Source: a virus
Taxonomy: Duplodnaviria; Heunggongvirae; Uroviricota; Caudoviricetes
IMG/VR virus record: IMGVR_UViG_3300011008_000007
Length of the DNA stretch: 64,000 nucleotides
Direction: 5' to 3' (one strand)
Positions 9,516 through 41,100 of the stretch are shown piece by piece; position 1 is the stretch's first letter, and each line of letters begins with the position of its first letter. The notes beneath the pieces were generated by a model. The model saw nothing but the letters and a program-made list of their open reading frames with translations. It searched no databases and was not told the DNA's origin. The position numbers and the translations under genes are program-made.

Positions 9516-9712
9516 CATTTGAGGTAGTTAAGGAAAAGGGCGGACGTTGGTATGTGTGCAAGGCAAATAGTAATCAGCCTATTGCCGGCACATTTAGAAA
9601 AGATAAAAAGGATTGCTTCCATATCGCCGCAGACCTTATGGGTATTACATATAAAGAGTATCTTAAACTACGCAAAAATAATAAACAGAGCAAAAAAAGT
9701 ATTGACAATTAG
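9506..9712 (+). CDS. hypothetical protein
   Basis: ORF with AAAGGAG SD. Confidence 0.4.
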   Translation: MPVTFEVVKEKGGRWYVCKANSNQPIAGTFRKDKKDCFHIAADLMGITYKEYLKLRKNNKQSKKSIDN

Positions 9713-9730
9713 TATAAATTGTGCTATAAT
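9702..9730 (+). promoter_or_regulatory. sigma-A type promoter TTGACA-N17-TGcTATAAT
   Basis: Hexamers at 9702-9707 and 9725-9730. Confidence 0.55.
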
Positions 9731-12352: not shown

Positions 12353-12381
12353 TTGACAAATATAATAAATTGTGTTATAAT
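12353..12381 (+). promoter_or_regulatory. promoter with A-rich block + TTGACA-N17-TGtTATAAT
   Basis: Hexamers 12353-12358 and 12376-12381. Confidence 0.55.
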
Positions 12382-12418
12382 GCAAATATAGTAAATGAGT
12401 TACTAAGGAGTGACGATT

Positions 12419-13345
12419 ATGGCACAGGTTGCACGGGTAAAATCTAAAGCAAAGATTATTGAACTGTTTCCGCAAGTTGTTGAGGAAACCAAAAAGGTAA
12501 GTTCAGCGCCTAATAATAAGAAAAAGGGAACTAAGTCGGAAGTGTTTGCGTTCAGAAGCATTGAGGACATTAAGAATGTTATCAATTACTTCTACAATCG
12601 CGGCGAGTGGATTCATTATCTTTATATTACTCTTGGTTTGAATCTTGTAAGACGTGTAGGGGATATGCTCACGCTGACTTGGGAAAACTTCTTTGACCCA
12701 CGCACAGGAAATTTCCGAGATGATATTCTTGAAATTTGCGAGGATAAGACAGACAAGTTTGCTAACCCGCATATCAATTCAGCTTGCAGAGATGCTATTA
12801 CCAATTATCTTGCTAAGGTTGGTTATGACCCTGCGGTTGATGATTACAAAATGCCTGTATTCTATCAGTTTACCGGCACGGCAAAAGGCAGAGTTCTTAG
12901 TCAGAGCGGCGAACTCAAAGCAATGAAGAGAGCTGCTGAATATCTTAACCTCACTTATAATATCGGAACTCATAGTCTGCGTAAAACATTTGGTAAGTGG
13001 AGCAGAATACTTCACCCATATGATAATGACAGTATGGAGCTTCTTAGAGCCATATACAACCATAGTGATACTAAAACTACAAGTCGTTATATTGGTTTGA
13101 CTAAAGAGAAGATTGATGATTATTATGACGATATGGGTTCATTCTATACCGATTATGTTGTAGGAGATAAGGAGTTTAAGCATAGCGCGGTTTCTCCGTT
13201 GGTTAGCATTGAGCGCAACGATATTATGGAAGTAGTTAAAATGGCTTATCAGCTCGGAAAAGAGTGTTCAGAGGAAACGGATTCCGAGGTTCATCTTGAT
13301 AATATGACCTCAATGCTTTCGATGATAGATGACCTTGCAAAGTAA
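12419..13345 (+). CDS. tyrosine recombinase/integrase family protein
   Basis: C-terminal catalytic signature GTHSLRKTFG ... YNHSDTKTTSRYIG (HxxR...Y of tyrosine recombinases). Confidence 0.6.
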   Translation: MAQVARVKSKAKIIELFPQVVEETKKVSSAPNNKKKGTKSEVFAFRSIEDIKNVINYFYNRGEWIHYLYITLGLNLVRRVGDMLTLTWENFFDPRTGNFRDDILEICEDKTDKFANPHINSACRDAITNYLAKVGYDPAVDDYKMPVFYQFTGTAKGRVLSQSGELKAMKRAAEYLNLTYNIGTHSLRKTFGKWSRILHPYDNDSMELLRAIYNHSDTKTTSRYIGLTKEKIDDYYDDMGSFYTDYVVGDKEFKHSAVSPLVSIERNDIMEVVKMAYQLGKECSEETDSEVHLDNMTSMLSMIDDLAK

Positions 13346-13722: not shown

Positions 13723-13914
13723 ATGGCAATTAAAGGAATACCCAAAGTAGAACAGATACAGGTTACGTTCACACGAGAGAACGGAGATGTGTTTATTACC
13801 ACAAGAAATAATCGCACAGGAGTGTGGTTTATGTATAAAGTCGAAAACGACGAGGCAACAAAGTTAGGTCAATCGAATGACCCGACAAAACTTGATGAGA
13901 AATTTATAAAGTAA
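13723..13914 (+). CDS. hypothetical protein
   Basis: ORF. Confidence 0.4.
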   Translation: MAIKGIPKVEQIQVTFTRENGDVFITTRNNRTGVWFMYKVENDEATKLGQSNDPTKLDEKFIK

Positions 13915-15078: not shown

Positions 15079-15471
15079 ATGTATAACAAGAACAATTCAA
15101 TAAGACCGAAGTTTGGAGAAATATGGATGTGTAACCTTTATGCAGAAGGTAGCATTCAGAGGGGATATAGACCGGTACTCATTATATCTAACAACCAAAA
15201 TAATACATACTCTCCGACAATCAATGTAATTCCATTGACAACTAAAATGAATAAAAAGAAGTTGCCTATTCACGTTGAGTTGTGGAACTATCAAGAGTAT
15301 GGATTAAAGGCTCCGAGTACAATATTGGTTGAACAAATCACAACGATTCCTCTTGAAAATTTGACTAAGAGAATCGGCAAGATAGACGACAGTTATACTT
15401 TAGGCGCAATTTATCAAGCGATGAGTATTCAATTCCCCATATTGAGTGTTATTAATATGCACATAGCATAA
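15079..15471 (+). CDS. PemK/MazF-like endoribonuclease toxin family protein
   Basis: RPKFGEIWMCNL...GYRPVLIISNN...INVIPLTTK matches the MazF/PemK fold pattern (GDI..dF, RPalVvs, vvvaPiTs). Confidence 0.55.
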   Translation: MYNKNNSIRPKFGEIWMCNLYAEGSIQRGYRPVLIISNNQNNTYSPTINVIPLTTKMNKKKLPIHVELWNYQEYGLKAPSTILVEQITTIPLENLTKRIGKIDDSYTLGAIYQAMSIQFPILSVINMHIA

Positions 15472-15543: not shown

Positions 15544-16545
15544 ATGCCAAAAATTTCTACCAAAGAGTTAATAGACGAATATTTTGACAGCATTAAGTAT
15601 GATGTAGCGAAGAATACTCTTCCTAAAGTTAAGCCAACTGTTGACCGTCCCGAGCTCTATACTTATGAGATAAAGATTGGAAAGCAGCTTGTCGAAATGA
15701 ACGCAGATGAAATATTGGATATGTTGTTTTATATAGAAACTCATTCAACAACATTTTCAGCCAATACTTCTATTACAATGTCAAGCGTATATGCTCGTAT
15801 ATCTCAGTATCGGAATATCGTCAATTATTACATTGACCACTATGAGGTAATAAAGAATCCTTTTAACGACAAAAAATTAAAAGGAAAAAATGTATCTGAT
15901 TATATGAACAGTAAGGTCAAGGGGTTATCGGTAGAGGATGTCGAGAGAGCTATCGAGGCTATTCAAAACGCCTACATAGATTATCGGCGCGATTATTATG
16001 AATGTGTTGTTCGATTGTTTTATGAGGGTGTTGCAACTCCACAAGAATTAATTGATATAAAGAAAGAACATATTAATTTTGAAACCAAAGAAATATCAAT
16101 AAATAATAAGGTAATCAGGTTATCAGAAAGATGCTTTGAGTTATTTATTAGGCAACACAATGCAACTCAGGTTGAGGCTTGGCGAGGCTATTATGACGCA
16201 ATTCCTTATCGCGGCAGTTTTATAAAATTCTATGTGAGGTCGCAAAGTGTTCCAGAGTTTGACGATTTGGATGTTGGACAGATAACTTCAAAGATAAGCA
16301 AAATAATAACCAAATGTATTAGACAGGATTTACACATTGATATTAAATCTTATAGAGAGATATATGGACTTGGTTTTTATAATTTCTTTGTAAAGAAAGT
16401 TGGAAATAAAGACAAGGCTGATGAGATTATTAATTCTGTCCGAAATGCAGAATATGTTGAAATTATTATGCAAGCTGCAAAAGAATATGGTGTATCAGCA
16501 ACAAACTCTTCGCAAGTAAAAGAGATATTGCGTAAATATATATAA
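15544..16545 (+). CDS. hypothetical protein
   Basis: ORF with SD. Confidence 0.5.
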   Translation: MPKISTKELIDEYFDSIKYDVAKNTLPKVKPTVDRPELYTYEIKIGKQLVEMNADEILDMLFYIETHSTTFSANTSITMSSVYARISQYRNIVNYYIDHYEVIKNPFNDKKLKGKNVSDYMNSKVKGLSVEDVERAIEAIQNAYIDYRRDYYECVVRLFYEGVATPQELIDIKKEHINFETKEISINNKVIRLSERCFELFIRQHNATQVEAWRGYYDAIPYRGSFIKFYVRSQSVPEFDDLDVGQITSKISKIITKCIRQDLHIDIKSYREIYGLGFYNFFVKKVGNKDKADEIINSVRNAEYVEIIMQAAKEYGVSATNSSQVKEILRKYI

Positions 16546-17762: not shown

Positions 17763-18560
17763 ATGGCTATTATTGGTTCTATTATAGGAGACATAGCGGG
17801 TTCAGTAATTGAATTTGGAAAACCAAAAGACTATAATCCAAAAACTGCCAAGCTGTTTACAGACGATAATGAATTTACAGACGATACTGTTTTATCTATT
17901 GCTACAAAATATGCAATTGAAAATGCTCGTTATGGAGTTCCCGATTATGCCGGAGCATATCACGAATTTGGATTAAAATACCCATATTGCGGATATGGCG
18001 AAATGTTTATGGATTGGTTGGAATCCGACAATCCTCTCCCTTATGGAAGTTACGGAAACGGTTCGGCAATGAGGGTATCATATATTGCAGACTATTATTC
18101 TGGATTTGGAGAGATTAAGAGGCAGGCAGAACGTTCAGCAGAATGTACCCATAACCACGAAGAGGGAATTAAAGGCGCTATGGTTGCAGCGACTTGTATT
18201 TGGGTTGCTAAAAATGGCACAAGAAAAGATGACGTATTGAGATTTGGGAAGAGGTTTTATCCAAAATCTGAATACCCATATAGTTGCGAATATTCTTTAG
18301 ATGAACTTAGAGAGTTCTATAAGTGGGATGCGACTTGTCAAGGTTCTGTTCCTTTGGCTATTAGATGTATATATGAAGCAGACAATTATGAGGAATTTTT
18401 AAGAAATGTATTCAGCGTTGATTGCGATGCCGATACCGTAGCCTGTATTGGCGGCGGAATCGCAGAAGAATTGTTTGATGGAACGGGGTTCGACAACAAG
18501 GAAATACTTGAAAAGTATTTGCCGGAAGAATTATATAAACAAATATCAATACTTTTATAA
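17763..18560 (+). CDS. ADP-ribosylglycohydrolase (DraG/ARH family)
   Basis: N-terminal GSIIGDIAGSVIEF (GxxxGDAxG...E) and GNGSAMR, both hallmarks of ADP-ribosylglycohydrolases. Confidence 0.6.
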   Translation: MAIIGSIIGDIAGSVIEFGKPKDYNPKTAKLFTDDNEFTDDTVLSIATKYAIENARYGVPDYAGAYHEFGLKYPYCGYGEMFMDWLESDNPLPYGSYGNGSAMRVSYIADYYSGFGEIKRQAERSAECTHNHEEGIKGAMVAATCIWVAKNGTRKDDVLRFGKRFYPKSEYPYSCEYSLDELREFYKWDATCQGSVPLAIRCIYEADNYEEFLRNVFSVDCDADTVACIGGGIAEELFDGTGFDNKEILEKYLPEELYKQISILL

Positions 18561-18577: not shown

Positions 18578-18606
18578 TTGACAGACTTATGAAAATATGG
18601 TATAAT
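18578..18606 (+). promoter_or_regulatory. promoter TTGACA-N17-TGgTATAAT
   Basis: Hexamers 18578-18583 and 18601-18606. Confidence 0.55.
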
Positions 18607-18684: not shown

Positions 18685-19311
18685 ATGAATATGACAAATG
18701 TAAATGTAGTTAATAATGTTCCAGATATTAATGTTAATATCGACAAATCAAAAAGCGGTATTTCTATCACCATAACTCAGAAATTAGGCAAATCCCTAAA
18801 GGATTATAAACCAGGTGAAACAGCAAAGATTGGGGATAGAGAATACATTGTACTCGAACAGATGGATGACAAAACGGCTGTTCTTGATAAAAATGTTGTT
18901 GAGAAGATGGAGTTTGGCAAAGATGCTAAATGGAACGGCAGCAACGTCGAAAAATATTGTGAGGGAGAGTATTATAATTCTCTTGCCAAAGTAGTAGGAA
19001 AAGATAATATTTTATCTCACACAGTAGACCTTATGTGCGATGATGGCTCTAATAAAGGTGTATTTTCTACAAACAATGTTTCGGTATTAACTCCCGAACT
19101 ATACCGTAAGTATAGAGAATTGATTCCTTTGGTTGATATTTCTTGTTGGACGCCTAATGGTGTAACGGTTCTCGATGAAGATTATGCGCGCTGCGTTTGC
19201 ATTGTCATCTGCAATGGCATCCTGGATTGGGGTGTCTGTGATTGGACTCATGGTGTGCGCCCGTTTTGTATCTTGAAATCTAACGTCTTGACCTCACAAT
19301 TAGATGAATGA
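18685..19311 (+). CDS. DGR target (variable) protein with C-terminal VR, CLec-fold-like C-terminus
   Basis: ATG 18685 after AAAGGAAAG. C-terminus ...ARCVCIVICNGILDWGVCDWTHGVRPFCILK carries VR 19185-19265, which differs from the downstream TR only at TR adenines. Confidence 0.65.
   Translation: MNMTNVNVVNNVPDINVNIDKSKSGISITITQKLGKSLKDYKPGETAKIGDREYIVLEQMDDKTAVLDKNVVEKMEFGKDAKWNGSNVEKYCEGEYYNSLAKVVGKDNILSHTVDLMCDDGSNKGVFSTNNVSVLTPELYRKYRELIPLVDISCWTPNGVTVLDEDYARCVCIVICNGILDWGVCDWTHGVRPFCILKSNVLTSQLDE
19185..19265 (+). repeat. DGR variable repeat (VR)
   Basis: 81 nt aligning to TR 19702-19782; about 12 mismatches, all at adenines of TR; GC-rich 3' end GGTGTGCGCCCG identical in both. Confidence 0.75.
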
Positions 19312-19673
19312 GTAATGAAAATAAATTTTTAATAGGTAATAAAGCCGAAAAATTATATTTTGATATTTTAGATAAAACAACTAATAGAAAGAAATATCCC
19401 GTAAAATTTCGGAGGCTTGCCGATAAGTTACAAGAAACTTCTTTAGAAATTTATTCTTGTGTTATTGATGCAAATGAGATTACACCCAATACATTATCTC
19501 GCAAACAATGCAAATTTGATATGCAGACAAATGCAATATCGGGTTGTAAAAAATTAAACAGCTTGATTAAGTATTGTTTACATTCAAGTCTTATTAGTAA
19601 TGCTGTTGGTGAGTATTGGAGCTCGTTGGCAACAGAAATTAAGAAAATGACTTTAGCTTGGCGAAAGATTTGA
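19308..19673 (+). CDS. DGR accessory variability determinant (Avd)-like protein
   Basis: About 120 aa helical protein between the target gene and TR, the canonical Avd position. Confidence 0.5.
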   Translation: MSNENKFLIGNKAEKLYFDILDKTTNRKKYPVKFRRLADKLQETSLEIYSCVIDANEITPNTLSRKQCKFDMQTNAISGCKKLNSLIKYCLHSSLISNAVGEYWSSLATEIKKMTLAWRKI

Positions 19674-19701
19674 TTGATTGATTCTTTAGGTTATGTGCTG
19701 T

Positions 19702-19782
19702 AACGCGCAACGTTTGCATTGTCAACTACAATGGCATCCTGAATTGGAATGACTGTAATTGGACTCATGGTGTGCGCCCGTT
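19702..19782 (+). repeat. DGR template repeat (TR)
   Basis: Intergenic, between avd and RT; cognate of VR. Confidence 0.75.
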
Positions 19783-19893
19783 CTGGTTTATTAGCGAGGT
19801 CTATAAGCTGCTAAGGCGGCTACAAGGAGTGCTACAAAATATCAAAAGAGTACATAACCTTTCTCAAATATTATGGGATAAATACAAAAGAAT

Positions 19894-20928
19894 ATGGGAG
19901 ATTTTCAGAAACTAATAGATTTTGGAAACCTATATAATTCCTGTCAAGTCTCTCTTAAAGGCAAAGGAAAGAAACAAAGTGCTATAAAATTTAATATAGA
20001 TGCCTTGGAAAATATTTTGCTTATGAAGCAAGAATTAATCCAACGTACATATCAAATTGGTAAGTACAATGAATTTGTTGTTTCTGAGCCGAAACGAAGA
20101 ATAATTAAATCAGGTACTTTTCGTGATAAGGTTCTTCAACATTGCCTATGCGACTACGTTCTATTACCCAAATTAAAAGATATTTTTATTTTGGATAATT
20201 ACGCTGGTCAAATAGGCAAAGGAACTTTATTTGGATTAAATCGTTTATCAGAAAATCTAAGTAATTTCTATGGCGAATTTGGCTATAGTGGATATATTTT
20301 AAAGTGTGATATTACTAAATTCTTTTATAGTATTAATCACACCTTAATGAAAATCTGTGTAAATAAATATTTTAAAGACCCTGATATACGTTGGGTTTGT
20401 GGATTATTTATAGATAGTACAGATGGGGATGGACTTCCATTGGGCAACCAAGTAAGCCAAGTTTTTGGTTTAATGTATCTCAATGGATTAGACCACTACA
20501 TTACAGAAGAATTAGGAATTAAATACTATGGACGGTATATGGACGATTTTTATTTAATATCGGAAAGTAAAGAAAAATTAAAAAATTGTTTACGGAAAAT
20601 AACGGAATTATTAGAAAAGATAAAGCTAACATTAAATAATAAAACAGAAATTGTACCTATAACAAAAGGAATTAGATTTTTAGGTTTTCATACATATTTA
20701 ACCGAAGAAGGAAAAGTAATAAGAAAATTAACTGGAGATAATAAACGCCAGATAAAAAAGAGATTGCGAAAATATGCCAATTTCGTAAAACTTGGCAAAA
20801 TGTCAAGAAAAGAATTTGATGAAAAATATATTGCTTGGAAGAATCATGCTTCACACGGCAATTGTTATAGATTGATTTGTAGTATGGATGAATTTGTAGA
20901 ATCTTTGTTTAATCAAAAAGGAGAGTAA
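19894..20928 (+). CDS. DGR reverse transcriptase
   Basis: RT motifs including YGRYMDDFYLI (YxDD); position downstream of TR. Confidence 0.8.
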   Translation: MGDFQKLIDFGNLYNSCQVSLKGKGKKQSAIKFNIDALENILLMKQELIQRTYQIGKYNEFVVSEPKRRIIKSGTFRDKVLQHCLCDYVLLPKLKDIFILDNYAGQIGKGTLFGLNRLSENLSNFYGEFGYSGYILKCDITKFFYSINHTLMKICVNKYFKDPDIRWVCGLFIDSTDGDGLPLGNQVSQVFGLMYLNGLDHYITEELGIKYYGRYMDDFYLISESKEKLKNCLRKITELLEKIKLTLNNKTEIVPITKGIRFLGFHTYLTEEGKVIRKLTGDNKRQIKKRLRKYANFVKLGKMSRKEFDEKYIAWKNHASHGNCYRLICSMDEFVESLFNQKGE

Positions 20929-20933: not shown

Positions 20934-21998
20934 ATGAGAAAATACATTGACGGTAAAAACCGCTTTGTTGAAGTTTTTAATCCCAAAACGGGGTTTTATA
21001 TGAGAACGGGTATTATTGACAAAGAGGGGAAAGATACAGGTGTTGACCCCTTTATGCGCTCTTATCCTGCATTAATTGATATTGGAATTATGGAGCGCTG
21101 CGTGTGTGCCCACAAGTGTAAAGTAGATTGTTATCAAAAGGCTTGTGACCGAAATGGCGAAAATATGAGCCTTGAAGATTACACTTGGATTATGGAACAG
21201 AGTAAAGGTAAGCTCCAGCAGGTGGCTTTGGGCGGCGCTGGCGACCCCGATACCCACGAAAACTTTGAGGATATTTTAAAAGTAACACGAGAATATGGTA
21301 TTGTTCCCAATTTTACAAGTTCAGGTATTACTTTCACAAAAGAAAAGGCTAAGTTGTGTAATAAATATTGCGGAGCGGTAGCAATCAGTTGGCATAATGA
21401 GGATTATACATTTAATTCAATCCAAATGCTATTGGAAGCGGGAGTTAAAACAAATATTCATTATGTTCTTTCCTCTAAATCTATTGATGACGCAATAGAT
21501 AGATTAAAGAATAATGGCTTCCCAAAGGGTATTAATGCAATTGTATTTCTTCTTTATAAACCTATTGGACTCGGCAAAATTGAGAATATATTAACTGCTA
21601 ATAATCCAAAGCTCAAAGAATTTTTTGATTTAATAGATAACGGGGATTTTAATTTTAAAATTGGATTCGATTCTTGTACTTGCCCTGGAATTATTAATAA
21701 TACTCAGAACATAAATCTCGACAGTATAGATTACTGTGAGGGCGGACGTTTTTCAATGTATATATCTGCCGATATGAACGCAATGCCTTGTTCTTTTGGA
21801 AATCAAAATCCAAAGTGGTATGTAAACCTTAGAGAGAATACCATTCAAGAGGCTTGGGATGGAGCTATATTTGAGAGATTTAGAAACTCATTAAGATATT
21901 CTTGCCCGAATTGTTTAAAGCGTGCAGGTTGCGCAGGCGGCTGTCCAATTTGCAGAGATATTGTTTTGTGTAACAAGGAGTGTAAGGAACTAATATGA
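20934..21998 (+). CDS. putative radical-SAM-like / SPASM-type Cys-rich protein (tentative)
   Basis: N-terminal Cys cluster CVCAHKCKVDC, GGAGDP (GGE-like) motif, C-terminal CPNCLKRAGCAGGCPIC cluster. Confidence 0.3.
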   Translation: MRKYIDGKNRFVEVFNPKTGFYMRTGIIDKEGKDTGVDPFMRSYPALIDIGIMERCVCAHKCKVDCYQKACDRNGENMSLEDYTWIMEQSKGKLQQVALGGAGDPDTHENFEDILKVTREYGIVPNFTSSGITFTKEKAKLCNKYCGAVAISWHNEDYTFNSIQMLLEAGVKTNIHYVLSSKSIDDAIDRLKNNGFPKGINAIVFLLYKPIGLGKIENILTANNPKLKEFFDLIDNGDFNFKIGFDSCTCPGIINNTQNINLDSIDYCEGGRFSMYISADMNAMPCSFGNQNPKWYVNLRENTIQEAWDGAIFERFRNSLRYSCPNCLKRAGCAGGCPICRDIVLCNKECKELI

Positions 21999-24876: not shown

Positions 24877-25701
24877 ATGATTAAGATAAATGGCGAAGAA
24901 ATTATAATCGAAAGATTTTATGACGGTACACCGAGAATTAAAGTTAATGAGAAATACGGCGAATTAAGAAGCGTAACTCTTGACTGGATTTATGAGAATG
25001 ATGCTGAACTTGTAAGTCTTATAATGATTAACGGTCATTTAAGAGAACACGGTGTTGAAAAGATATTCTTAAATATGCCTTATTTACCCAATGCAAGAAT
25101 GGACAGAACAGAAAATGAAGAGGAAGTTTTTACACTTAAATATTTCTGTAAAGTGATTAATGGTATGAGTTTTGATGGGATTACGGTTTATGACGCTCAT
25201 TCGAGGGTCGGAGTTGCCTTATTGGACAAGGTTGTTGATATAAACCCAAAGAATGATGTTATCATAGTATTGATTAAGATTGGTGCCTTAGACGAATATT
25301 TAAATATTATTGATGATAATTTCATTTTGTATTTTCCTGACGATGGCGCCGCAAAAAGATATTCTAAAATGTTTCCTAATATCCCATTTGCTTATGGAGA
25401 TAAGGATAGGGATTGGAAAACAGGTAAGATAATTGATACCAAAGTCAAAGACAACGGTATTGACCTTGCAGGCAAGAACGTCCTCATTATTGATGATATA
25501 TGCAGTAAGGGCGGCACATTCTATTATAGTTCCAAGAAACTCAAAGAACTTGGCGTACATAAAATTAATCTCTTCGCCACGCATTGCGAAAATATTGTAT
25601 TAGAGGGTCAAATTTTAGATAGTGGGCTGATTGAAAAATTATATACGGTTGACACTATTTTTACAAAAACACATCCAAAAATTGAGGTGATTCCATATTG
25701 A
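24877..25701 (+). CDS. ribose-phosphate pyrophosphokinase (Prs)-like protein (possible ADPR-pyrophosphate synthetase Adps)
   Basis: MPYLPNARMDRT (Prs IPYxGYARQDR motif) and PRPP-binding loop NVLIIDDICSKGGT; 274 aa, shorter than canonical Prs. Confidence 0.6.
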   Translation: MIKINGEEIIIERFYDGTPRIKVNEKYGELRSVTLDWIYENDAELVSLIMINGHLREHGVEKIFLNMPYLPNARMDRTENEEEVFTLKYFCKVINGMSFDGITVYDAHSRVGVALLDKVVDINPKNDVIIVLIKIGALDEYLNIIDDNFILYFPDDGAAKRYSKMFPNIPFAYGDKDRDWKTGKIIDTKVKDNGIDLAGKNVLIIDDICSKGGTFYYSSKKLKELGVHKINLFATHCENIVLEGQILDSGLIEKLYTVDTIFTKTHPKIEVIPY

Positions 25702-27272
25702 AACCGATAGTTCCTACGCTTTTAATTGATTTTTATAAAGGTGTTCACGCTGAAATGCTCCCTAAAAAGATTGAAAAATCCGTTTCTTATTTTACTCCGA
25801 GAATGAGCAGGGTAAAACGTTGGAAATATGTAGTTTTCTTTGGTTTACAGGGATTTATCAAAGAGTATCTTAGAGATTATTTTAATGAGCATTTCTTTAT
25901 AAGAGGTACCAATGAGGTTGTAAATGAGTATAAAAGAGTAATGGACAATACTCTTGGCGAGGGTATCTATGGAATTGAAAAAATTGAGAAACTGCATAAG
26001 CTCGGCTATTTGCCAATTGAAGTAGTTGCACTTCCCGAAGGCACAAGAGTTCCTATGCACGTTCCTATGTTTGGAATAACTAATACACATCCTGACTTTG
26101 CTTGGCTTCCGCAGGCTCTTGAAAGTTTAATTTCAGCAGAGGTTTGGCATCCTATGGTCGCGGCTACGGTTGGAGATACATATCGCCAAATTGTAAACAA
26201 GTATTATAAAGAAACTTGCGACGACAACATTTCGAGAGCGCGAGCTTTGGGTAGTTTTGACTTCCGTGGAGATGAAGGACTTGAAAACGCAACAAAAACA
26301 GGCGCAGCTTGGTTGTTGTCTTTCTTGAATACGGCTACTGTACCGGCAATTCCATACCTTGAAGAATACTATAATTGTGATTGTACAAAAGAGCCTGTTG
26401 GTTTTGGTTCTCCATCTACTGAGCATTCTGTTATGTGTAGCAACTATGCCGTAGACGGTGATGAGACTACTTTGCTTCGCAGATTATTGACCGAAATTTA
26501 CCCAAATACTTCTTTCTCGGCAGTTCTTGATAGTTACGACTACTGGAACGTAATTGACAATATTCTTCCTCAGTTAAAACCTGAGATTATGTCACATAAC
26601 GGCTGTATGCTTATGCGCGGTGATAGCGGAGATTGCGTTGATGTTGTAACCAAAACAGTATTCAAGCTATGGGATATTTTTGGTGGCACAACGAACAGTA
26701 AGGGATATAAAGTTCTCGACCCGCACGTTAAAGCTATTTATGGAGATAGCATTACTGTTCAGCGCTGCGAGCAGGTTTATCAAATTTTAAAAGATAACGG
26801 ATTTGCCGCGTCAAACGTGGCGCTTGGAGTTGGTTCTTTCTCAATGCAATGTATTGAAGAGGAAGAGGAAATCGGAGTTTTAATTCCTGGCGGAACAGAG
26901 ATATACAGACAGGGCAACACCGTTTCTACAATTGAGGGAGATACAAAATTCATTTGTACAATGCCTATTTTAAAGCCATTCACAAGAGACACATTTTCTA
27001 TGGCTATTAAAGCAACATATTGTGAAGTTGATGGTAAGCCCGTTCCCATTTTCAAAAATCCAAAAGACGGCGGATTTAAGAAATCTCAAAAAGGCTGTTG
27101 TGTTGTAGAAGAGGATGCATTTGGCGGTTTACAATATAAAGATAATTACACTTGGGAAGAGGCACAGAATAACAAAAATCAACTTCTCAAAACAGTTTTT
27201 ATAGACGGAACAATGGAAAAAGAACATTCTCTTTCGGAGATTAGAAATAGACTTCACAAAGGTGATTTTTAA
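25698..27272 (+). CDS. NAMPT-family phosphoribosyltransferase (NadV/Namat-like)
   Basis: Several blocks co-linear with nicotinamide phosphoribosyltransferase: FYKGVHAEMLP, VVFFGLQGFIKEYL, LPIEVVALPEGTRVP, FDFRGDEG, IYGDSIT. Confidence 0.7.
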   Translation: MKPIVPTLLIDFYKGVHAEMLPKKIEKSVSYFTPRMSRVKRWKYVVFFGLQGFIKEYLRDYFNEHFFIRGTNEVVNEYKRVMDNTLGEGIYGIEKIEKLHKLGYLPIEVVALPEGTRVPMHVPMFGITNTHPDFAWLPQALESLISAEVWHPMVAATVGDTYRQIVNKYYKETCDDNISRARALGSFDFRGDEGLENATKTGAAWLLSFLNTATVPAIPYLEEYYNCDCTKEPVGFGSPSTEHSVMCSNYAVDGDETTLLRRLLTEIYPNTSFSAVLDSYDYWNVIDNILPQLKPEIMSHNGCMLMRGDSGDCVDVVTKTVFKLWDIFGGTTNSKGYKVLDPHVKAIYGDSITVQRCEQVYQILKDNGFAASNVALGVGSFSMQCIEEEEEIGVLIPGGTEIYRQGNTVSTIEGDTKFICTMPILKPFTRDTFSMAIKATYCEVDGKPVPIFKNPKDGGFKKSQKGCCVVEEDAFGGLQYKDNYTWEEAQNNKNQLLKTVFIDGTMEKEHSLSEIRNRLHKGDF

Positions 27273-27742
27273 TGATTAGGATTGTTGATGGCGATTTATT
27301 AGAAAGTAAAGCTAACATTATTGCACATCAAGTTAATTGTCAAGGAGTAATGGGTTCGGGTGTGGCAAAAGCCATAAAAAAGAATTATCCGTATGCTTTT
27401 AAATGTTATAAAGAATACATAAAAGAAAATTCTCCCGAATTGGTATTTGGATTTTGTCAGCTTGTACCCATTTATCTTCCGTCTGGAAAACCAAAATATA
27501 TAGCAAATTTATTTGGACAGTTTGATTATGGATATAACGGAGATTGCTACACAAACATAGACAAGCTCCGCACGGCTTTTCTTGCATTAAATGAATTTGC
27601 AGAAGAAGAAAACCTAACCGTTGCTATGCCATATAAAATTGGCTGTGTTCGTGGCGGCGCAAACTGGAACGAGGTTTTAAAAATGATTTGCAATATTTTT
27701 CAAAACGTTTACGTCGAAATTAGGCGTTTAGATAGAGGTTAA
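27272..27742 (+). CDS. macro domain protein (ADP-ribose binding/hydrolase)
   Basis: IIAHQVNCQGVMGSGVAKAI matches the Macro-domain Gly-rich ADP-ribose pocket motif. Confidence 0.55.
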   Translation: MIRIVDGDLLESKANIIAHQVNCQGVMGSGVAKAIKKNYPYAFKCYKEYIKENSPELVFGFCQLVPIYLPSGKPKYIANLFGQFDYGYNGDCYTNIDKLRTAFLALNEFAEEENLTVAMPYKIGCVRGGANWNEVLKMICNIFQNVYVEIRRLDRG

Positions 27743-27744
27743 TT

Positions 27745-28503
27745 ATGTATGATATGATTACGAAAATAAAAGAAGATTGCGTTAAATGGATTAGCTCGTG
27801 GTTTAATAAGAATGGTTGGCAATGTAATGCAATCGTTGGTATTTCTGGTGGAATTGATTCAAGTGTAGTTGCCGCTCTTTGTGTAGAAGCTCTCGGCAAA
27901 GAACGTGTTATTGGTGTATTGATGCCGAATGGAGTTCAGCCAGATATTGATTATGCTTATAAGCTCATCAATCATTTAGGAATCGAGAGTATAGAAATCA
28001 ACATTAAAGATTCCGTAGATAATATCATAAAACAGATAGACAATGCTTCGGAGCAGACATTGATTAATTTGCCGGCACGAATTAGAATGTCAACATTATA
28101 TGCGGTTTCTCAAAGTAATAACGGCAGGGTAGCAAACACTTGTAATTTATCAGAAGATTATATTGGTTACTCAACAAGATATGGAGATAGTGTTGGTGAT
28201 TTTAGCCCATTGGCTCACTTTACTAAATCGGAAGTATTGTTGATTGCAGATAAATTGGGATTGCCTAAAGAACTAATTGAAAAGGTGCCGACAGATGGAT
28301 TGAGCGGCAAAACCGATGAAGAGAATTTTGGATTTACATACGAACAATTGGATAAGGAGATTAGAGGTTGTTATAATTATCCAAAGACCAATTTAGAGAG
28401 AGAAATCACAAATAAGATTGATGAACTACACAAGAAAAATGAGTTTAAATTAAAGCCTATGGATTGTTATGATTTCCACGGATTTAAACATTATACAAGC
28501 TAA
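27745..28503 (+). CDS. nadE: NH3-dependent NAD+ synthetase
   Basis: PP-loop GISGGIDSSVV and overall NadE-like length and order. Confidence 0.7.
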   Translation: MYDMITKIKEDCVKWISSWFNKNGWQCNAIVGISGGIDSSVVAALCVEALGKERVIGVLMPNGVQPDIDYAYKLINHLGIESIEINIKDSVDNIIKQIDNASEQTLINLPARIRMSTLYAVSQSNNGRVANTCNLSEDYIGYSTRYGDSVGDFSPLAHFTKSEVLLIADKLGLPKELIEKVPTDGLSGKTDEENFGFTYEQLDKEIRGCYNYPKTNLEREITNKIDELHKKNEFKLKPMDCYDFHGFKHYTS

Positions 28504-30938: not shown

Positions 30939-30967
30939 TTGACAAATTGATAAAAGTATGCTATAAT
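30939..30967 (+). promoter_or_regulatory. promoter with A-rich block + TTGACA-N17-TGcTATAAT
   Basis: Hexamers 30939-30944 and 30962-30967; followed by a 250 nt structured leader before the flotillin gene. Confidence 0.55.
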
Positions 30968-31214
30968 ACATACTGTAATCAAGAGAGTAACAAATTGAGT
31001 GGTGAGTAAAAAGCCTTTTGACAAATGGAGAAATTTTATTAGAATAAGTTAATTCCTCTCCCTTGAAAGGAGAAAATTTCGGTTAAAGCCCGAAATAAGA
31101 TTTTAAAGTTTGGATAAAGAAAAAGATAACGTCGCGCGAGTTATCTCCTATAGGTGTAAGTCCTATGGCTCAATTTTACATAGATAAACTAAAGATTAAG
31201 GAGTTTATTTTACT

Positions 31215-32804
31215 ATGTTTGAAAACATTTTACCGTATTTGACAATCGGGGGCGTTGTTCTGGCTATTGTTCTTGCAATAATTATTTTCCTTTGCAAGAT
31301 TTACAAGGTAGCGGACATCGACAAAGCTCTCATTATTACGGGTGGTAAGGAACCCATTATTAAGGTTTCCGGCGGCAGTTTCGTAGTTCCGATTTTCCGC
31401 AAGGCACAGTATTTCGACTTGTGTATGCTAACGGTAACGGCGGATGAAGACGAAGTAAAAACCAGTACGTCAGTTCCTATCATTATTGATTGGACAGCTC
31501 AAATTAGACCTGATATTCACAACTTAGAGAATCTAAGAAAAGCAATTATCTCGTTTAAAGAGAGAGGTCAAGATGGAATCATTAATGACGTTGGTTTAAC
31601 TCTTACTGGCGTAGTTCGTGACATTGTTGCTTCAATGACACCAGAGGAAGTCCAGAGAGATAAAGTCACTTTTGCCGAGAACGTAAGAAATAACGTTGCG
31701 GACGAAATGATTAATATGGGTATGGAAATCGTTTCTCTTAATATCCAAGACATTAGCGATAACAATGGTTATTATGACAATATTGCTCGTCTTGATATGG
31801 AAGATAAACGTCGAGAGGCTGAAAATAAGATTGCTGCTGTTGACCAGTCGGTTCGCACACAGAAAGCCGAATCCGAAAAGATTGCCTCTCAGAATGAGCT
31901 CGACTCAGAGCTTGCCGTAGCCGAAAAGCAGAGAGATAATAATATCAAAATTGCGGGATTTAAGGCAGAAACCGATAAAGCTAATGCCGATGCTTCAATT
32001 GCCGGCGAATTGCAGAAAACCAAAAGGCAGCAGGAGATTGCTAAGGAACGTGGTCAAGTACAAGTAGTTGAACAGGAACAGGCAAATCTTGCGGCGCAAA
32101 AGGAAAAAGAAGTAATTGCGACAAGAGCAGCGGCAGAAAAGCAGAAGAAAGAAATCGACGCAGAGGCAGAATCTAATGTAAATAAGATTTCCGCTGACGC
32201 AAGAGTTTCGGTTGCCGAAAAGGACGCTAACGCGGTTAAGATTACCGCAGACGCTAATGCCGAGAAAATCCGCAAAGAAGGTATGGCTGAGGCAGACATT
32301 ATTAAGGCTAAAGGTCTTTCTGAGGTCGAGATTGCCAAATCAAAAGGTATGGCAGAAGCCGAAGTTGAAAAGCAGAAACTTATGGCGCAAGCTGAAGGTG
32401 AAAGAGCACTTGCTGAGGCTCGTGCGGCAAATGAGAAAGTCAACTTTGAGATTGAAAAACTCAAAATTGAGAATGATGCTAAGATTACCATTGCAACCAA
32501 GACGGCTGAGATTATGGCTAATATCGGTCAGAATGCTGAGTTCGTTAATATTGGCGGAAATGGCGGAGCAGGTAGCACAGGAAATGTGCTTATCGACACT
32601 CTCAATGCGGTGCCAGGTCTTATGAGGTCGCTTAATGCACAAAATGAGGCATTAAATGGTCGCTCAATTAACGAAGAGCTCAATAATTTGGTTTCAAGCG
32701 TTGCCGCACCAATCAAGGGTTTGCTTTCAACCTCAGAAACAACCAATATCAATACGAGTGAAGAATCAAAACTTCCGAGTAGCGATGCGGTTGAAGAGGA
32801 CTAA
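31215..32804 (+). CDS. flotillin-like SPFH/band-7 protein
   Basis: N-terminal TM, SPFH-like core, then a long Ala/Glu/Lys-rich coiled coil (KAEAEAEVEKQK...) as in bacterial flotillins (YqiK/FloA). Confidence 0.6.
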   Translation: MFENILPYLTIGGVVLAIVLAIIIFLCKIYKVADIDKALIITGGKEPIIKVSGGSFVVPIFRKAQYFDLCMLTVTADEDEVKTSTSVPIIIDWTAQIRPDIHNLENLRKAIISFKERGQDGIINDVGLTLTGVVRDIVASMTPEEVQRDKVTFAENVRNNVADEMINMGMEIVSLNIQDISDNNGYYDNIARLDMEDKRREAENKIAAVDQSVRTQKAESEKIASQNELDSELAVAEKQRDNNIKIAGFKAETDKANADASIAGELQKTKRQQEIAKERGQVQVVEQEQANLAAQKEKEVIATRAAAEKQKKEIDAEAESNVNKISADARVSVAEKDANAVKITADANAEKIRKEGMAEADIIKAKGLSEVEIAKSKGMAEAEVEKQKLMAQAEGERALAEARAANEKVNFEIEKLKIENDAKITIATKTAEIMANIGQNAEFVNIGGNGGAGSTGNVLIDTLNAVPGLMRSLNAQNEALNGRSINEELNNLVSSVAAPIKGLLSTSETTNINTSEESKLPSSDAVEED

Positions 32805-32885
32805 TTTTTAAGGGCAATAAACCTAACAATAAAATTAGTGCAAGAAACATAAAGAAAAGGGAGAGTGTAATTCTCTCCCACATAC

Positions 32886-32960
32886 TGAGCCGTCGCCAAG
32901 CGGTAAGGCACAGGACTTTGACTCCTGCACTCGTGGGTTCAAATCCCGCCGGCTCAGCCA
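32886..32960 (+). tRNA. tRNA-Gln(TTG)
   Basis: Hand-folded cloverleaf: acceptor TGAGCCG/CGGCTCA, anticodon loop CTTTGAC, T-arm GTGGGTTCAAATCCCGC, CCA encoded. Confidence 0.7.
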
Positions 32961-33261
32961 ATAGGTTCTCATTGACCTTAGAATAATGGGCGAGACCAAA
33001 TGAGAAGCAGGTATAAATCTCCGTCAGCAGAGAAAGTTGAGAGAATGGCTGCGTGTTATGTGTTATCTTTTATAGTTTTTCATAGGACTTTAGCGTGAAT
33101 AAAGAAGTAAGTAAAAACTATATATGGCGAGTTCAGTAATAGATGACGCAATATACAAAGTATATTGTTTGAAAGTATAAAATCCCAGGGCTCTTTTATA
33201 CGAGTAAATAATACAAAAATATCGGGGCAGTACCGAGGCTCGTTCACCAACTTAAAAATAT

Positions 33262-33729
33262 GGGGCAGTTCTGGTATTCGACAGGCTGTTGAAAGAATAA
33301 ACTTCGCAGGTAAGCTACAACCTTAATGTGCAAACTTAAAAATAAACGACAAAACTGTTGTAACACTTCATCCTGCTCTTGTAGCAACACTCTCACAGAG
33401 GGCTGCCGCATAAGCAAATTTGGATGCCAAAACAATACTCCTGCTATTCGGTAAGTATTTGAGGTTTAGGATAGAGTAGCAAAATGGTTTCTTGCTTCCA
33501 CAAAAAGTAAGTGGTGGATTTGGTTTGACGAAACTTGTCATCCCCATTCGGAATATCACGAGACCGTCACCGAATTAAAATATAAGGAGTATTATTATGG
33601 AATGCGATTAATTTAATAAAACTATGAGAACGGTAGAGGCTCGGACGGCAAAAAGAATACCTATTGCGTAAAAAGAGTTTATTTAAGTATGTAGTTTGGA
33701 CACGAGTTCGATTCTCGTCTGCTCCACCA
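33262..33729 (+). ncRNA. ssrA: tmRNA (SsrA)
   Basis: 5' GGGGCAGTTCTGGTATTCGACAGG (tmRNA consensus GGGGCUGAUUCUGGAUUCGACGGG). 3' GGACACGAGTTCGATTCTCGTCTGCTCCACCA (T-arm + acceptor pairing with the 5' end + CCA). Candidate tag ORF 33330-33413 ending ...QRAAA-stop; length 468 nt is long. Confidence 0.6.
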
Positions 33730-33802
33730 GTTGTTGTTGCCAAATATTAACATTGTAAACAACGATAGGTTTTATCATTTTCCTAACAAAAAAATGATTT
33801 AT

Positions 33803-33895
33803 GGCGCAGTAACCCTAATTGGTAAGGGAGCAGTTTGCTAAACTGTGAGTAACCGAGCAATCGGCTTGTAGGTTCAAGTCCTACCTGTGCCGCCA
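33803..33895 (+). tRNA. tRNA-Ser(GCT), type II
   Basis: Acceptor GGCGCAG/CTGTGCC, anticodon loop TTGCTAA, long variable arm, T-arm GTAGGTTCAAGTCCTAC, CCA. Confidence 0.65.
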
Positions 33896-33912
33896 CATTT
33901 GGAGGATATAGC

Positions 33913-34683
33913 ATGATTTACATCACGGGTGACTGTCACGCAAAATTCGATAGATTTTCAACTAAAAGATTTCCCGAACAAAAGGAAATGACCAAAGATG
34001 ATTATGTTATCATTTGCGGCGATTTTGGCGGAGTATGGAATCATTCTGTATCAACCTCGGAAGAAAAGTATTGGCTTGATTGGCTCAATGACAAACCTTT
34101 CACAACATTATTTGTTGACGGTAATCACGAGAATTTTGACCGACTGAAAGATTTTCCTCGCAAAAATTGGAACGGAGGAATGGTACACGAAATTAGACCA
34201 AGTGTTCTCCATCTAATGAGAGGTTATGTGTTCGATTTAGGGGGAAAGAAATTCTTTACCTTTGGTGGAGCTAAAAGTCACGATATTCAAGATGGTATTT
34301 TAGACCTAAAAGATTATAAAAGCCTTTCTGATTTGGTTAAAGATTATAATCTTCGCACATTTCATTTAAGACAAATGTTGAGAATAAACCATTATTCTTG
34401 GTGGAAAGATGAACTTCCGACAACCGCCGAAATGGAACGAGGAATTAAAAATTTAAACAAAGTTGATTTTAAGGTCGATTATGTGATTTCACATTGCCCA
34501 CCAAGAGAAGTAAATGCTTGGCGAGGATATTATGACCAAGACAGATTAACAAAGTATTTTGATAAACTGCTCGAAATAGGATTAAGCTTCAAAGAATGGT
34601 GGTCAGGACACATTCATTGTAATGAATACGGAGTGTTCAGTAAATATAATGTTATCTATGAAGATATTAAGAGGTTAGTTTAA
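33913..34683 (+). CDS. calcineurin-like metallophosphoesterase
   Basis: Motifs ITGDCH, ICGDFGG, DGNHEN of the metallophosphatase fold. Confidence 0.6.
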   Translation: MIYITGDCHAKFDRFSTKRFPEQKEMTKDDYVIICGDFGGVWNHSVSTSEEKYWLDWLNDKPFTTLFVDGNHENFDRLKDFPRKNWNGGMVHEIRPSVLHLMRGYVFDLGGKKFFTFGGAKSHDIQDGILDLKDYKSLSDLVKDYNLRTFHLRQMLRINHYSWWKDELPTTAEMERGIKNLNKVDFKVDYVISHCPPREVNAWRGYYDQDRLTKYFDKLLEIGLSFKEWWSGHIHCNEYGVFSKYNVIYEDIKRLV

Positions 34684-34994
34684 TGATAAAAATAGTCAGA
34701 GCCGCCATTAGATTTAAACAACTTAATTCGGATAGATACTCTTCCGACGAGTATCGAATTAAATATGGTTGGCGACACCATTTGATTTTTCAAGAAATGC
34801 AAAATGAGGGTATTGTTTATAATCGTAACGATTATCAATCTGGCTTTATAACAAACGAACATCCTATACATTTTGTAGATAGAGAAGAAGCTGCAAAAAT
34901 TGCCTATAAAGCCGGACAAACGCCAATATTAAAAGAAACTTTGTTTTCTGAGGATTTATGGAATATTGACGGAACATTGGTGTACGAAAAATAA
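34683..34994 (+). CDS. hypothetical protein
   Basis: ORF, coupled. Confidence 0.4.
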   Translation: MIKIVRAAIRFKQLNSDRYSSDEYRIKYGWRHHLIFQEMQNEGIVYNRNDYQSGFITNEHPIHFVDREEAAKIAYKAGQTPILKETLFSEDLWNIDGTLVYEK

Positions 34995-35008
34995 TACAAT
35001 AAAAATGC

Positions 35009-35084
35009 GAGCATAGTGTAGCTGCATAGCATATTTGCCTTCCAAGCAAATGGCGCGGGTTGGAATCCCGCTGTTCGCTCCACG
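35009..35084 (+). tRNA. tRNA-Gly(TCC)
   Basis: 76 nt cloverleaf; anticodon loop CTTCCAA; T-loop TTGGAAT is atypical; CCA encoded. Confidence 0.55.
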
Positions 35085-35516
35085 GAAGTTTAAGATTAAA
35101 TACAGTCCACAAGAACTAACATATCCTTATTCTATGGTTCTTACTCACGACTGGCGCCTGCGCTGGTAAGTTAAGGTTCTTATTGCCGAAGTACAAGGTG
35201 GCTGTTGCCTAAACAGATATGTAAATTTGGGGTCGAACTGCCCTTAGCCAAAATAGTTTTTCGCCAACTGAATGAAGTTGTTGGGGTTTTGCATATGACC
35301 AAATACATATGTGAGGTTTGTATTCTCGGATATACAGGTTAAACATTCAACCACAAAATGTTCGGCGTTTGGTTCGTATCGTCGAGAGGAATATAATGAA
35401 CAAGGTGAGATTCAAACCTTTTAAATATGTGCTTTTCGAGTTGGCTACGAAGTTGCTACATATAGGAATTAGGATAGCAACCTACTTTGGCGGCGGTCAA
35501 GATAACAGCTATATAT

Positions 35517-35591
35517 GTGGTCGTTGGTGTAACGGTAGCACGTTTGTTTGTGGCACAAAAGGAGTGAGTTCGATTCTCACACTTCCAACCA
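35517..35591 (+). tRNA. tRNA-His(GTG)-like (acceptor stem irregular)
   Basis: Anticodon arm TTTGT-TTGTGGC-ACAAA and T-arm GTGAGTTCGATTCTCAC are clear; the acceptor strands could not be paired cleanly by hand. Confidence 0.35.
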
Positions 35592-35594
35592 TAA

Positions 35595-35663
35595 GTCCGT
35601 ATAGTTTAAGGAACAAAACACCGCAAGATTGCGGAAACGTGGGCTCGGTACCCACTATGGGCA
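35595..35663 (+). pseudogene. degenerate tRNA-like element
   Basis: 7 bp acceptor-like pairing GTCCGTA/TATGGGC, D-like GTTT/AAAC, T-like stem GTGGG/CCCAC with non-canonical loop CTCGGTA, no canonical anticodon loop. Confidence 0.25.
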
Positions 35664-35771
35664 AACATAGTTGATGGCGCTATGGTCAGTAAGCTATCCG
35701 CGTTTGATTGTAGGCGTAGAGGTTGACATCTAACTACAATCTGGCACCTCGGAAAGACGGGGCATATATGT

Positions 35772-35846
35772 GGCGGGTTAGTCAAGTGGCTAAGACACTA
35801 CCCTTTCACGGTAGTAGCACGGGTTCGAGTCCCGTACCCGTCACCA
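35772..35846 (+). tRNA. tRNA-Glu(TTC)
   Basis: Acceptor GGCGGGT/ACCCGTC, anticodon loop CTTTCAC, T-arm ACGGGTTCGAGTCCCGT, CCA. Confidence 0.65.
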
Positions 35847-36020
35847 TTTGAGAAACATCAAAGGGAAGATTAAACATTAAAGACTACGACAGGGATTATC
35901 GCTGAAAAGTCGGTTAAGCGATTAATAAAGTTCCGAACTCGAAAAAGCGTTTTTGATAACAAACGGTAAACATTATCATCGCAACTAATCAAGCGGTTGT
36001 AGTAAAACAAAAGAGGCTAT

Positions 36021-36320
36021 ATGAGAATGAATAGGCTGATACGAGATATGAGAAAGAATAGACTGACACGCAAAGAAAAGAAAATGGCACACCAGCAATG
36101 TAAAAACTGCCGGCACTTTGGTGAGGGTTGTTGGAATGTTGATGGAGATTGTGTTAATTATCTTTCTAATACCGATACCAATTTTATTGTTATTGATATG
36201 ACTGTTGAAGTTAATAAAGATGTCGATGTGCGTATATTTTCTCAATATTTAACTAATTGGTTTGATTCTCACGGTTGGTCTTACTGTGGTTCAATAAAAC
36301 CATACGACGAAAAAGAATAA
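36021..36320 (+). CDS. hypothetical Cys-rich protein
   Basis: ORF with SD; CKNCRHFGEGC motif. Confidence 0.4.
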   Translation: MRMNRLIRDMRKNRLTRKEKKMAHQQCKNCRHFGEGCWNVDGDCVNYLSNTDTNFIVIDMTVEVNKDVDVRIFSQYLTNWFDSHGWSYCGSIKPYDEKE

Positions 36321-36325
36321 TATTT

Positions 36326-36401
36326 GCGCCATTAGCTCAGTTGGTAGAGCACTCGGCTTTTAATCGAGGTGTCCGGAGTTCGAGCCTCCGATGGCGCACC
36401 A
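36326..36401 (+). tRNA. tRNA-Lys(TTT)
   Basis: Acceptor GCGCCAT/ATGGCGC, D-arm TAGCTCAGTTGGTAGAGCA, anticodon loop CTTTTAA, T-arm CGGAGTTCGAGCCTCCG, CCA. Confidence 0.75.
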
Positions 36402-36590
36402 TTAAAGCACTAACAGCAAAATTATATAATAATTTAGGGTACAATTAATTATTTAAAGTGCTTTGAAAAGACGCGCACAGCAGTTAAATACATAATAATT
36501 TTGTTTTTGTTTTCTCATATGTTATTTACTCCTTTTAAAATATAGTGTTGATTGTAAGCGTCTTGACAAAAAAAGAAAGGATTTTGTATT

Positions 36591-38995: not shown

Positions 38996-39036
38996 ATAAA
39001 ACTTGCATTTTATTTATAAAACTATCTAAAAAATTA

Positions 39037-39065
39037 TTGACAAATCAATAAAAATATGCTATAAT
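39037..39065 (+). promoter_or_regulatory. promoter TTGACA-N17-TGcTATAAT
   Basis: Hexamers 39037-39042 and 39060-39065. Confidence 0.55.
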
Positions 39066-39157
39066 ACAGTTGTAATGAGGGCGAGGGTAAGTTTAACAAC
39101 TCAAACTCCCTCGCCTTTATTGGAAATAATAAACCTATCAATAAAATTAGAGGAAAT

Positions 39158-39343: not shown

Positions 39344-39346
39344 TAT

Positions 39347-39749: not shown

Positions 39750-39799
39750 ATAAGAAAAATATCTGTTGCTTGCTGTCCGGTTTAAAGCAACAGGTATAT

Positions 39800-41097: not shown

Positions 41098-41100
41098 AAA

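Follow-up and report, generated by a model that had tools for sequence, protein, structure and literature searches.

Can a cassette of phage genes that lies far from any recognized structural gene be a complete diversity-generating retroelement (DGR), and what would such an element diversify? The question is raised by positions 18685-20928 of a 64,000-nucleotide stretch of a Caudoviricetes genome (IMG/VR record IMGVR_UViG_3300011008_000007; hereafter the window). An initial annotation, made from the sequence alone, described this locus as a complete DGR that performs adenine-specific mutagenic homing, as in Bordetella phage BPP-1, and that acts on a small standalone protein. Our analysis agrees: the locus has a DGR-type reverse transcriptase (RT), an Avd-like gene, a variable repeat (VR) that departs from its template repeat (TR) at adenines, a lectin-like target, and conserved RNA elements, and the VRs of sister lineages are hypervariable; the single expected feature that is missing is a hairpin downstream of VR. 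The cassette, in the order promoter, target, avd, TR, spacer, and RT (Table 1), shows no trace of inactivation and is a real, complete DGR. We are highly confident that it is an intact, canonical element, a judgement that covers its identity and mechanism jointly, and only these; the mechanism is drawn from homology and conserved anatomy.

Adenine-restricted differences between the two repeats

A direct repeat of 79-82 nt at an offset of 517 places VR (19187-19268) in register with TR (19704-19785), where the initial annotation had put the two copies (19185-19265 and 19702-19782). Compared base by base, the repeats differ at 11 positions within these 81-nt coordinates, and in 11 of 11 an A in TR is replaced in VR. 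Nine of the mismatches fall inside the uninterrupted homology; the other two, at the 5' edge (TR 19702 and 19703), adjoin a non-A mismatch at 19701 and are of uncertain status. If mismatches fell at random, all of them would hit A with a hypergeometric probability of 2.4e-7 (nine of nine, with 18 A in 79 nt) or 1.4e-8 (11 of 11). The earlier count of roughly 12 differences was thus too high (9-11 were found), while their restriction to TR adenines held on re-alignment, and both examples given (AAC to TGC at 19709/19192, and GGAAT to GGGGT) were correct. A chance repeat or a plain gene duplication was ruled out, as every mismatch falls on A and TR is non-coding.

The GC-rich 12-mer GGTGTGCGCCCG, annotated as an identical 3' end of the two repeats, occurs in the window at 19252 and 19769 only. 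On its 3' side the junction base differs, T in VR (CCGTTTTG) and C in TR (CCGTTCTG), after which homology is lost; this is the sole fixed non-A difference and marks the 3' junction. A scan of IMG/VR gave 80 loci, which were then searched by tblastn, the closer relatives being 38-56% identical to the target and lying on contigs of up to 164 kb, and the full target-avd-TR-RT cassette was found at ten loci on nine contigs (L009, L011, L012, L015, L020, L025, L028, L030, L031, and L032). The T/C junction is present in the window and in 10/10 of these related cassettes, whose VR/TR differences are likewise A-biased and, in the core, A-only, with non-A differences at the alignment ends and the junction base. 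Two of them, L028 and L030, have one TR in common and different VRs (11 and 19 A-changes). No further VR was found in the 64-kb window, where an A-masked TR pattern matches the VR and TR sites only.

The VR spans codons 168-194 of the target open reading frame (ORF), and the nine A-to-N changes occupy eight codons, at residues 170-186. They include AAC to TGC, AAC to ATC, TAC to TGC, GAC to GTC, AAT to GAT (twice), and AAT to GGT. Read in the VR frame, TR has 13 A-bearing codons, six of them AAY, and its computed repertoire is about 1.9e11 peptides, with no stop codon reachable. The initial annotation was right about the size of the target (given as about 210 aa; 208 aa found) and about the sequence of its C-terminus, which it described as Cys/Trp-rich. 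The abundance of cysteines is, however, largely a product of mutagenesis, because Cys170 and Cys176 derive from TR AAC and TAC (both TGC in VR); the template-fixed cysteines of the tail are Cys172, Cys185, and Cys195 only.

Population data from sister lineages show the same signature. Two sister clusters, of 361 and 29 members, are near-invariant outside VR and scrambled within it, with the pattern YARxVCxVxSxGxLxWxxCxxSxGVRPFCIL. In the 361-member cluster, whose cassette was recovered at locus L167, the columns that vary coincide exactly with the TR codons that contain A, and no invariant column has an A. For the family, VR polymorphism is therefore evident; the window element itself is represented by one sequence only, its 90% identity cluster having one member, on two contigs, with a single VR.

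Retrohoming machinery and RNA elements

The RT matches phrog_1423 (E 4e-105) and also Pfam RVT_1. Its best match in the PDB is the RT of BPP-1, bRT (8ub7_A, E 1.3e-35), residues 9-333 aligning with 14-321, and the motifs KCDITKFF, LGNQVSQ, and RYMDD align with the catalytic aspartates and the template- and dNTP-contacting residues of bRT. Both motifs of the DGR clade are present, YxDD (GRYMDDFYL, the YMDD noted initially) and [LIV]GxxxSQ (LGNQVSQ). The groups of phages that supplied its 144 phage RT matches include known DGR carriers (Bordetella, Faecalibacterium). The 121-aa ORF that had been annotated as Avd-like, between the target and TR, matches phrog_3206 ("Avd protein of DGR") over its full length (E 1.9e-13); the NCBIfam Avd match is weak (17.6 bits, below the cut-off). 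A single-sequence AlphaFold2 (AF2) model of this protein has four helices at low confidence and was left out of the fold search.

We aligned the avd-to-RT intergenic region of ten cassettes and folded the alignment. Three helices were found, comprising 23 base pairs, in which 98.7% of alignment cells are paired versus 36-53% when the partners are slid by 1-3 columns; compensatory changes occur in 11 of the 23 pairs. The duplex that brackets TR (11-12 bp) is paired in 100% of cells across 10 sequences and has four compensatory pairs, and the hairpin that follows about 20 nt past TR is likewise paired in 100% of cells, with all five of its stem pairs compensatory. Directly after the duplex there is a stem-loop of six pairs, two of them compensatory, and the A-rich tract on its 3' side is nearly invariant. 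All three helices are intact in the window copy. They are visible by comparative analysis only, a single-sequence fold of the entire TR-spacer being no better than shuffles (z = -0.49). The BPP-1 ribonucleoprotein is reported to contain a "cPRT Stop" duplex, an adjacent stem-loop with adenosines, and an Avd-binding stem-loop, elements predicted in 207 other DGRs (bioRxiv 10.1101/2023.10.23.563531), and the three window helices match these.

The likeness to the BPP-1 DGR (mtd-avd-TR-brt) thus extends from gene order (target, avd, TR, spacer, RT) to RT homology over the full length with catalytic and template-contact residues kept, the adenine-only signature, a VR at the C-terminus of a C-type-lectin-fold domain, a GC-rich element at the 3' end of VR and TR, and the three RNA elements (the TR-bracketing duplex, the adjacent stem-loop with adenosines, and the stem-loop past TR). 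The dimensions differ, with a TR of 79-82 nt against 134 nt in BPP-1 and a spacer of about 108 nt against 144 nt; the upstream strand of the duplex lies in the avd-TR intergenic gap in the window, whereas in BPP-1 it lies inside avd. A sigma-70 promoter of its own and a place in an accessory region set the window cassette apart from that of BPP-1, which stands at the end of the tail-gene block. Several observations weigh against a fully canonical element. No hairpin or cruciform was detected 3' of VR (z-scores 0.35 and -0.35), unlike in BPP-1; hhalign gave no similarity between the window Avd and BPP-1 Avd, nor did a comparison with PDB sequences; and the alignment, inspected by eye, showed no consistent pairing for a template:primer duplex with a priming adenosine. 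A hairpin downstream of VR is not known to be universal among DGRs. The preservation of BPP-1 RNA elements in a distant lineage of Firmicutes phages supports a conserved mechanism, and the locus provides a clean DGR from Clostridia phages and prophages of about 110-165 kb, in which the promoter, the initiation of mutagenic homing (IMH) junction, and covariation-supported RNA elements can be mapped.

By analogy with BPP-1, we propose that target, avd, TR, spacer, and RT are transcribed as one unit from the consensus host-type promoter, and that the TR-spacer RNA would be held on an RT-Avd complex by the duplex between the TR flank and the spacer together with the two spacer hairpins. The RT would copy TR into complementary DNA (cDNA), inserting random bases opposite adenines, and the cDNA would replace VR, a direction suggested by the common GC-rich element and the VR-specific 3' junction. 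Up to 13 codons could in this way be re-randomised in the C-terminal part of a C-type-lectin-like DUF6273 protein.

The predicted sigma-70 promoter upstream of the target probably drives the cassette. It is one of nine perfect copies of TTGACA-N17-TATAAT in the window, all on the plus strand and most with the TG extension; about 1.2 matches would be expected by chance in the window at up to one mismatch. A comparable promoter box recurs on a related contig (L003). The ATG of avd overlaps the stop codon of the target (ATGA). For a protein identical to the target (P0001), a 240-aa form is on record; its start is probably mis-called, because it lies within the promoter.

Table 1. Features of the DGR cassette and promoters of the same type in the window
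Feature	Position	Strand	Remarks
Consensus sigma-70-type promoter	18578-18606	+	TTGACA, 17 nt, TGgTATAAT; 12/12 match, extended -10 TG
Target gene, 208 aa	18685-19311	+	Single DUF6273/C-type-lectin-like domain, VR at C-terminus
VR	19187-19265; homology may reach 19185-19268	+	Repeat comparison with TR
IMH-like 3' element	19252-19268	+	GC-rich GGTGTGCGCCCG, then junction TTTTG (TTCTG in TR)
Avd-like accessory gene, 121 aa	19308-19673	+	phrog_3206 match; position conserved in relatives
5' strand of TR-bracketing duplex	19688-19699	+	Pairs with 19849-19860; candidate analogue of BPP-1 "cPRT Stop" duplex
TR, non-coding	19704-19782; may reach 19702-19785	+	Repeat comparison with VR
Spacer hairpin, candidate Avd-binding stem-loop	19806-19821	+	Covariation; UNCG-type tetraloop in several relatives
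3' strand of TR-bracketing duplex	19849-19860	+	Pairs with 19688-19699
Stem-loop (19862-19878), then conserved A-rich tract	19862-19890	+	Covariation, alignment; tract consensus GGGATAAATACAAAAG
DGR RT, 344 aa	19894-20928	+	phrog_1423, Pfam RVT_1, bRT alignment
Nine perfect promoters	630-658, 964-992, 9702-9730, 12353-12381, 18578-18606, 30939-30967, 39037-39065, 54781-54809, 61730-61758	+	

Fold and possible role of the target protein

The target matches Pfam DUF6273 (PF19789) above the gathering score, as well as phrog_9958; the Pfam search gave no domain besides DUF6273. Its model is confidently C-type-lectin-like, a fold that the initial annotation had raised as a possibility, and comprises a single globular domain and an N-terminal beta-hairpin of roughly 35 aa. 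The structural neighbours of the model include the N-terminal DUF6273 domain of a Thomasclavelia ramosa IgA peptidase (9qa6; score 14.9, 161 residues aligned), the C-terminal domain of Legionella Lcl (10.6), the Bacteroides fimbrial protein 4eps (8.1), the Treponema DGR target TvpA (7.6), and dozens of animal C-type lectin domains (6-7). Of these, 9qa6 differs in being a domain of a secreted, sortase-anchored protease with no DGR association and 16% identity, and TvpA and the Legionella Lcl/LdtA-type targets differ in being cellular, surface-exposed, and members of other Pfam families (FGE-sulfatase, DUF1566). In BFVD the matches are DUF6273 proteins from gut viromes (190-1436 aa), some of them labelled tail or receptor-binding. 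The N-terminus (MNMTNVNVVNNVPD) has no obvious signal peptide or lipobox by reading, no prediction tool having been run. A lipoprotein or secreted reading was set aside on this ground, and the lipoprotein-like ligand proposed initially is unlikely.

The initial annotation presented a small standalone target as unusual, which overstated the case: the single-domain DUF6273 DGR target is an already described type in gut phages. Examples are "tgt2" of phages nd4/nd12, described with the tentaclins (PMC10743442), the small counterparts of large DUF6273 targets in Faecalibacterium phages (Lelie/CP11; PMC11792537), and the core target of Toutatisvirus, which lies 17.5 kb from TR and persists without a DGR (bioRxiv 10.1101/2024.10.15.618418); a survey of DGRs had also reported viral targets of unknown or non-structural class (PMC8144416). 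Like these small targets, that of the window is a single DUF6273 domain (roughly 200-300 aa) with a C-terminal VR, belongs to phages of Clostridia hosts, can lie away from tail genes, and can persist without a DGR. It is only 27-33% identical to them, however, and those phages, of 30-60 kb, carry the small target as a remote second target whose TR also serves a large Ig-domain tentaclin, whereas in the roughly 160-kb phage studied here it is the sole target found (64 kb searched) and lies directly upstream of avd. The tentaclins themselves (Hoc-like, DUF6273 plus Ig-like) also bear VR in a DUF6273 lectin-like domain; the window target is not one of them, because it lacks Ig-like and Fn3 domains and has its VR at the C-terminal end. 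Nor is it an Mtd: this 208-aa single domain has neither the N-terminal beta-prism and beta-sandwich of BPP-1 Mtd (PMC10743442) nor similarity to that family. Less usual in this DGR are its setting (a roughly 160-kb phage, a consensus promoter, and neighbours related to NAD/ADP-ribose and RNA repair), the lack of a structural-annotated gene within 40 kb among the ORFs scanned, and the existence of relatives that keep the target and have lost the cassette.

The least certain step in our account is that the target would be a variable ligand-binding protein. We consider it about evenly balanced whether this protein works beyond the cytoplasm, as an adhesin that is attached to the virion or released; the reading follows the role assumed for the DUF6273 targets of other Clostridia phages ("tgt2" and the tentaclins), even though the gene lies in the accessory region. 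The known contexts of DUF6273, namely tentaclins, tail-fibre fusions, a "Hoc-like head decoration" protein in a structural module beside a tail-fibre gene, and a secreted bacterial IgA peptidase, would favour an extracellular or virion role, and an intracellular or lysogen-serving role appears less likely. Several features speak against a place in the virion. About 54 ORFs of the window were scanned, and the sole one with a structural annotation (61799-62353) lies about 41 kb from the cassette and at least 40 kb from the target gene, so the initial remark that the target is far from any structural module holds within the window; the target has its own consensus promoter of the accessory-gene type; it has no recognisable virion-attachment domain beyond the N-terminal beta-hairpin; and no signal peptide is apparent on reading its N-terminus.

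The promoter, which is of the type used across the accessory region, and the lack of an attachment domain or of a signal peptide seen by reading would equally suit a functional DGR whose target is an early-expressed intracellular binder that neutralises variable host factors, for example defence proteins. We regard this as unlikely, though with an appreciable chance of being right. The promoter type and neighbours would suggest an "early genes" setting: an ADP-ribosylglycohydrolase gene (17763-18560) lies directly upstream of the cassette, genes for PRPP synthase, NAMPT, and NAD synthetase lie 4-7 kb downstream of the DGR (24877-28503), RNA-repair genes are found elsewhere in the window, and in the sister locus (L167:5938-10001) isochorismatase, NAMPT, and NADAR-NAD-synthase genes are directly followed by the cassette. 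The NAD/ADP-ribose genes around the DGR look like a counter-defence or NAD-reconstitution region. A radical SAM/SPASM gene (20934-21998; Pfam SPASM 6e-6, weak Radical_SAM, phrog_7293) begins 5 nt after the RT stop, and homologues of 69-75% identity adjoin the cassette on its downstream side in L020 and L032 and on its upstream side in L009 and L010; such an enzyme might take part in maturation of the target, and a link to its Cys-containing VR is pure speculation. Six other full cassettes and every cassette-less locus lack the gene within 10 kb, so the linkage may be mere shared ancestry; gene neighbourhood in a 160-kb phage is weak functional evidence. All characterised contexts of DUF6273 are, moreover, extracellular or virion-associated, and C-type-lectin-fold DGR targets studied to date are surface-displayed (PMC8144416). 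A more specific version, in which an early cytoplasmic binder tracks variable host immune sensors or effectors and its Cys hairpin is perhaps cross-linked by the radical SAM/SPASM enzyme, strikes us as distinctly improbable; if true, it would be the first DGR serving intracellular counter-defence, and proof of an intracellular target would widen the view of what DGRs are for.

There is also a slim chance that the cassette is a lysogen-expressed "moron" whose variable lectin-like protein serves the bacterial host, in adhesion or vesicle release, and not phage adsorption. Ruminococcus sp. YE282 carries a close relative, L011, as a 113-kb provirus, the window has two tyrosine-recombinase-like genes, a DUF6273 tentaclin of a prophage is reported to be produced in lysogens and to occur in vesicles in the absence of phage particles (preprint, bioRxiv 10.64898/2026.05.08.723808), and the strong host-type promoter would sustain expression of the target from a prophage; but the target has no apparent export signal or membrane anchor, and the same promoter type stands ahead of many other phage genes in the window and is hence not specific to the cassette. 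That the cassette is instead a recently inactivated relic, its retrohoming stopped and its VR frozen, we judge very improbable, even though decay is common in this lineage and this exact phage has one VR sequence on record. In L010 (10630-11125) and L013 (10608-11149) a deletion that begins near avd residue 47 and ends at RT residue 189 or 222 has removed TR; RT residues 127-200 are missing in L027 and L028, while L030, which has the TR of L028, has an intact RT and a more diverged VR; and about a dozen relatives retain the target but have neither an Avd nor an RT gene within 10 kb. In the window, in contrast, all ORFs are full length, the catalytic motifs and the three RNA helices are intact, and VR and TR show no non-A drift over 79 nt save the conserved junction base, which argues for recent homing.

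Related loci and surroundings of the cassette

The window covers an accessory region, all on the plus strand, of a phage of roughly 160 kb; the protein identical to the target, P0001, sits on a 162-kb contig, and megablast against GenBank found no near-identical phage. Many of the 218 homologues of the target are on contigs of 100-350 kb, and the family was found in Clostridia genomes and metagenome-assembled genomes only. More distant phages, of 30-60 kb, usually carry two tandem DUF6273 genes ahead of avd-RT.

The relatives without Avd or RT genes within up to 10 kb of the target (L003, L008, L014, L016-L019, L021-L024, L026, and L029) still differ strongly from each other at the residues equivalent to VR. 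Their VRs could either be frozen after earlier diversification or be served by an RT and TR elsewhere in the genome; none of their contigs is among the best 80 of 552 RT loci, and most of these contigs are fragments. The avd-TR-RT module therefore comes and goes beside a conserved DUF6273 gene.

Other arrangements were observed farther from the window. The RT of the sister lineage (cluster P0023; L167:11365-12792) is 475 aa long, with precomputed Pfam matches to RVT_1, YAcAr, and, weakly, DNA_processg_A (DprA-like), and probably carries an additional fused domain that is missing from the window RT. Locus L005 (7277-15242; also L006) has two small DUF6273 genes (188 and 201 aa) with a 115-nt VR-like repeat in common. 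An RVT_1 gene of 384 aa lies 3.4 kb downstream, between 53-nt direct repeats that are 96% identical (13726-13778 and 15190-15242); tblastn with the window RT gives no match to it, and no TR was found there.

The two tyrosine-recombinase/integrase-like ORFs of the window (12410-13345 and 15544-16545; phrog_216 E 1e-24, phrog_1 E 5e-9), together with the provirus relative in Ruminococcus sp. YE282, hint at a temperate lifestyle. Methyltransferase genes are also among the window ORFs. An RNA-repair-like set (36591-38995, 43331-43876, and 52696-54789) encodes a Thg1 tRNA-His guanylyltransferase, an RNA 2'-phosphotransferase, and an NAD-dependent ligase; a 524-aa phrog_850 "RNA-binding protein" belongs to this set alongside the tRNA array. 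The array consists of about 20 tRNA genes (31032-41825). Within these coordinates there is an Rfam tmRNA match (33262-33729, 76 bits) that ARAGORN did not report, and three of the Rfam tRNA matches are long, at 116-128 nt (40840-40967, 40976-41095, and 41102-41217), and may carry introns or insertions.

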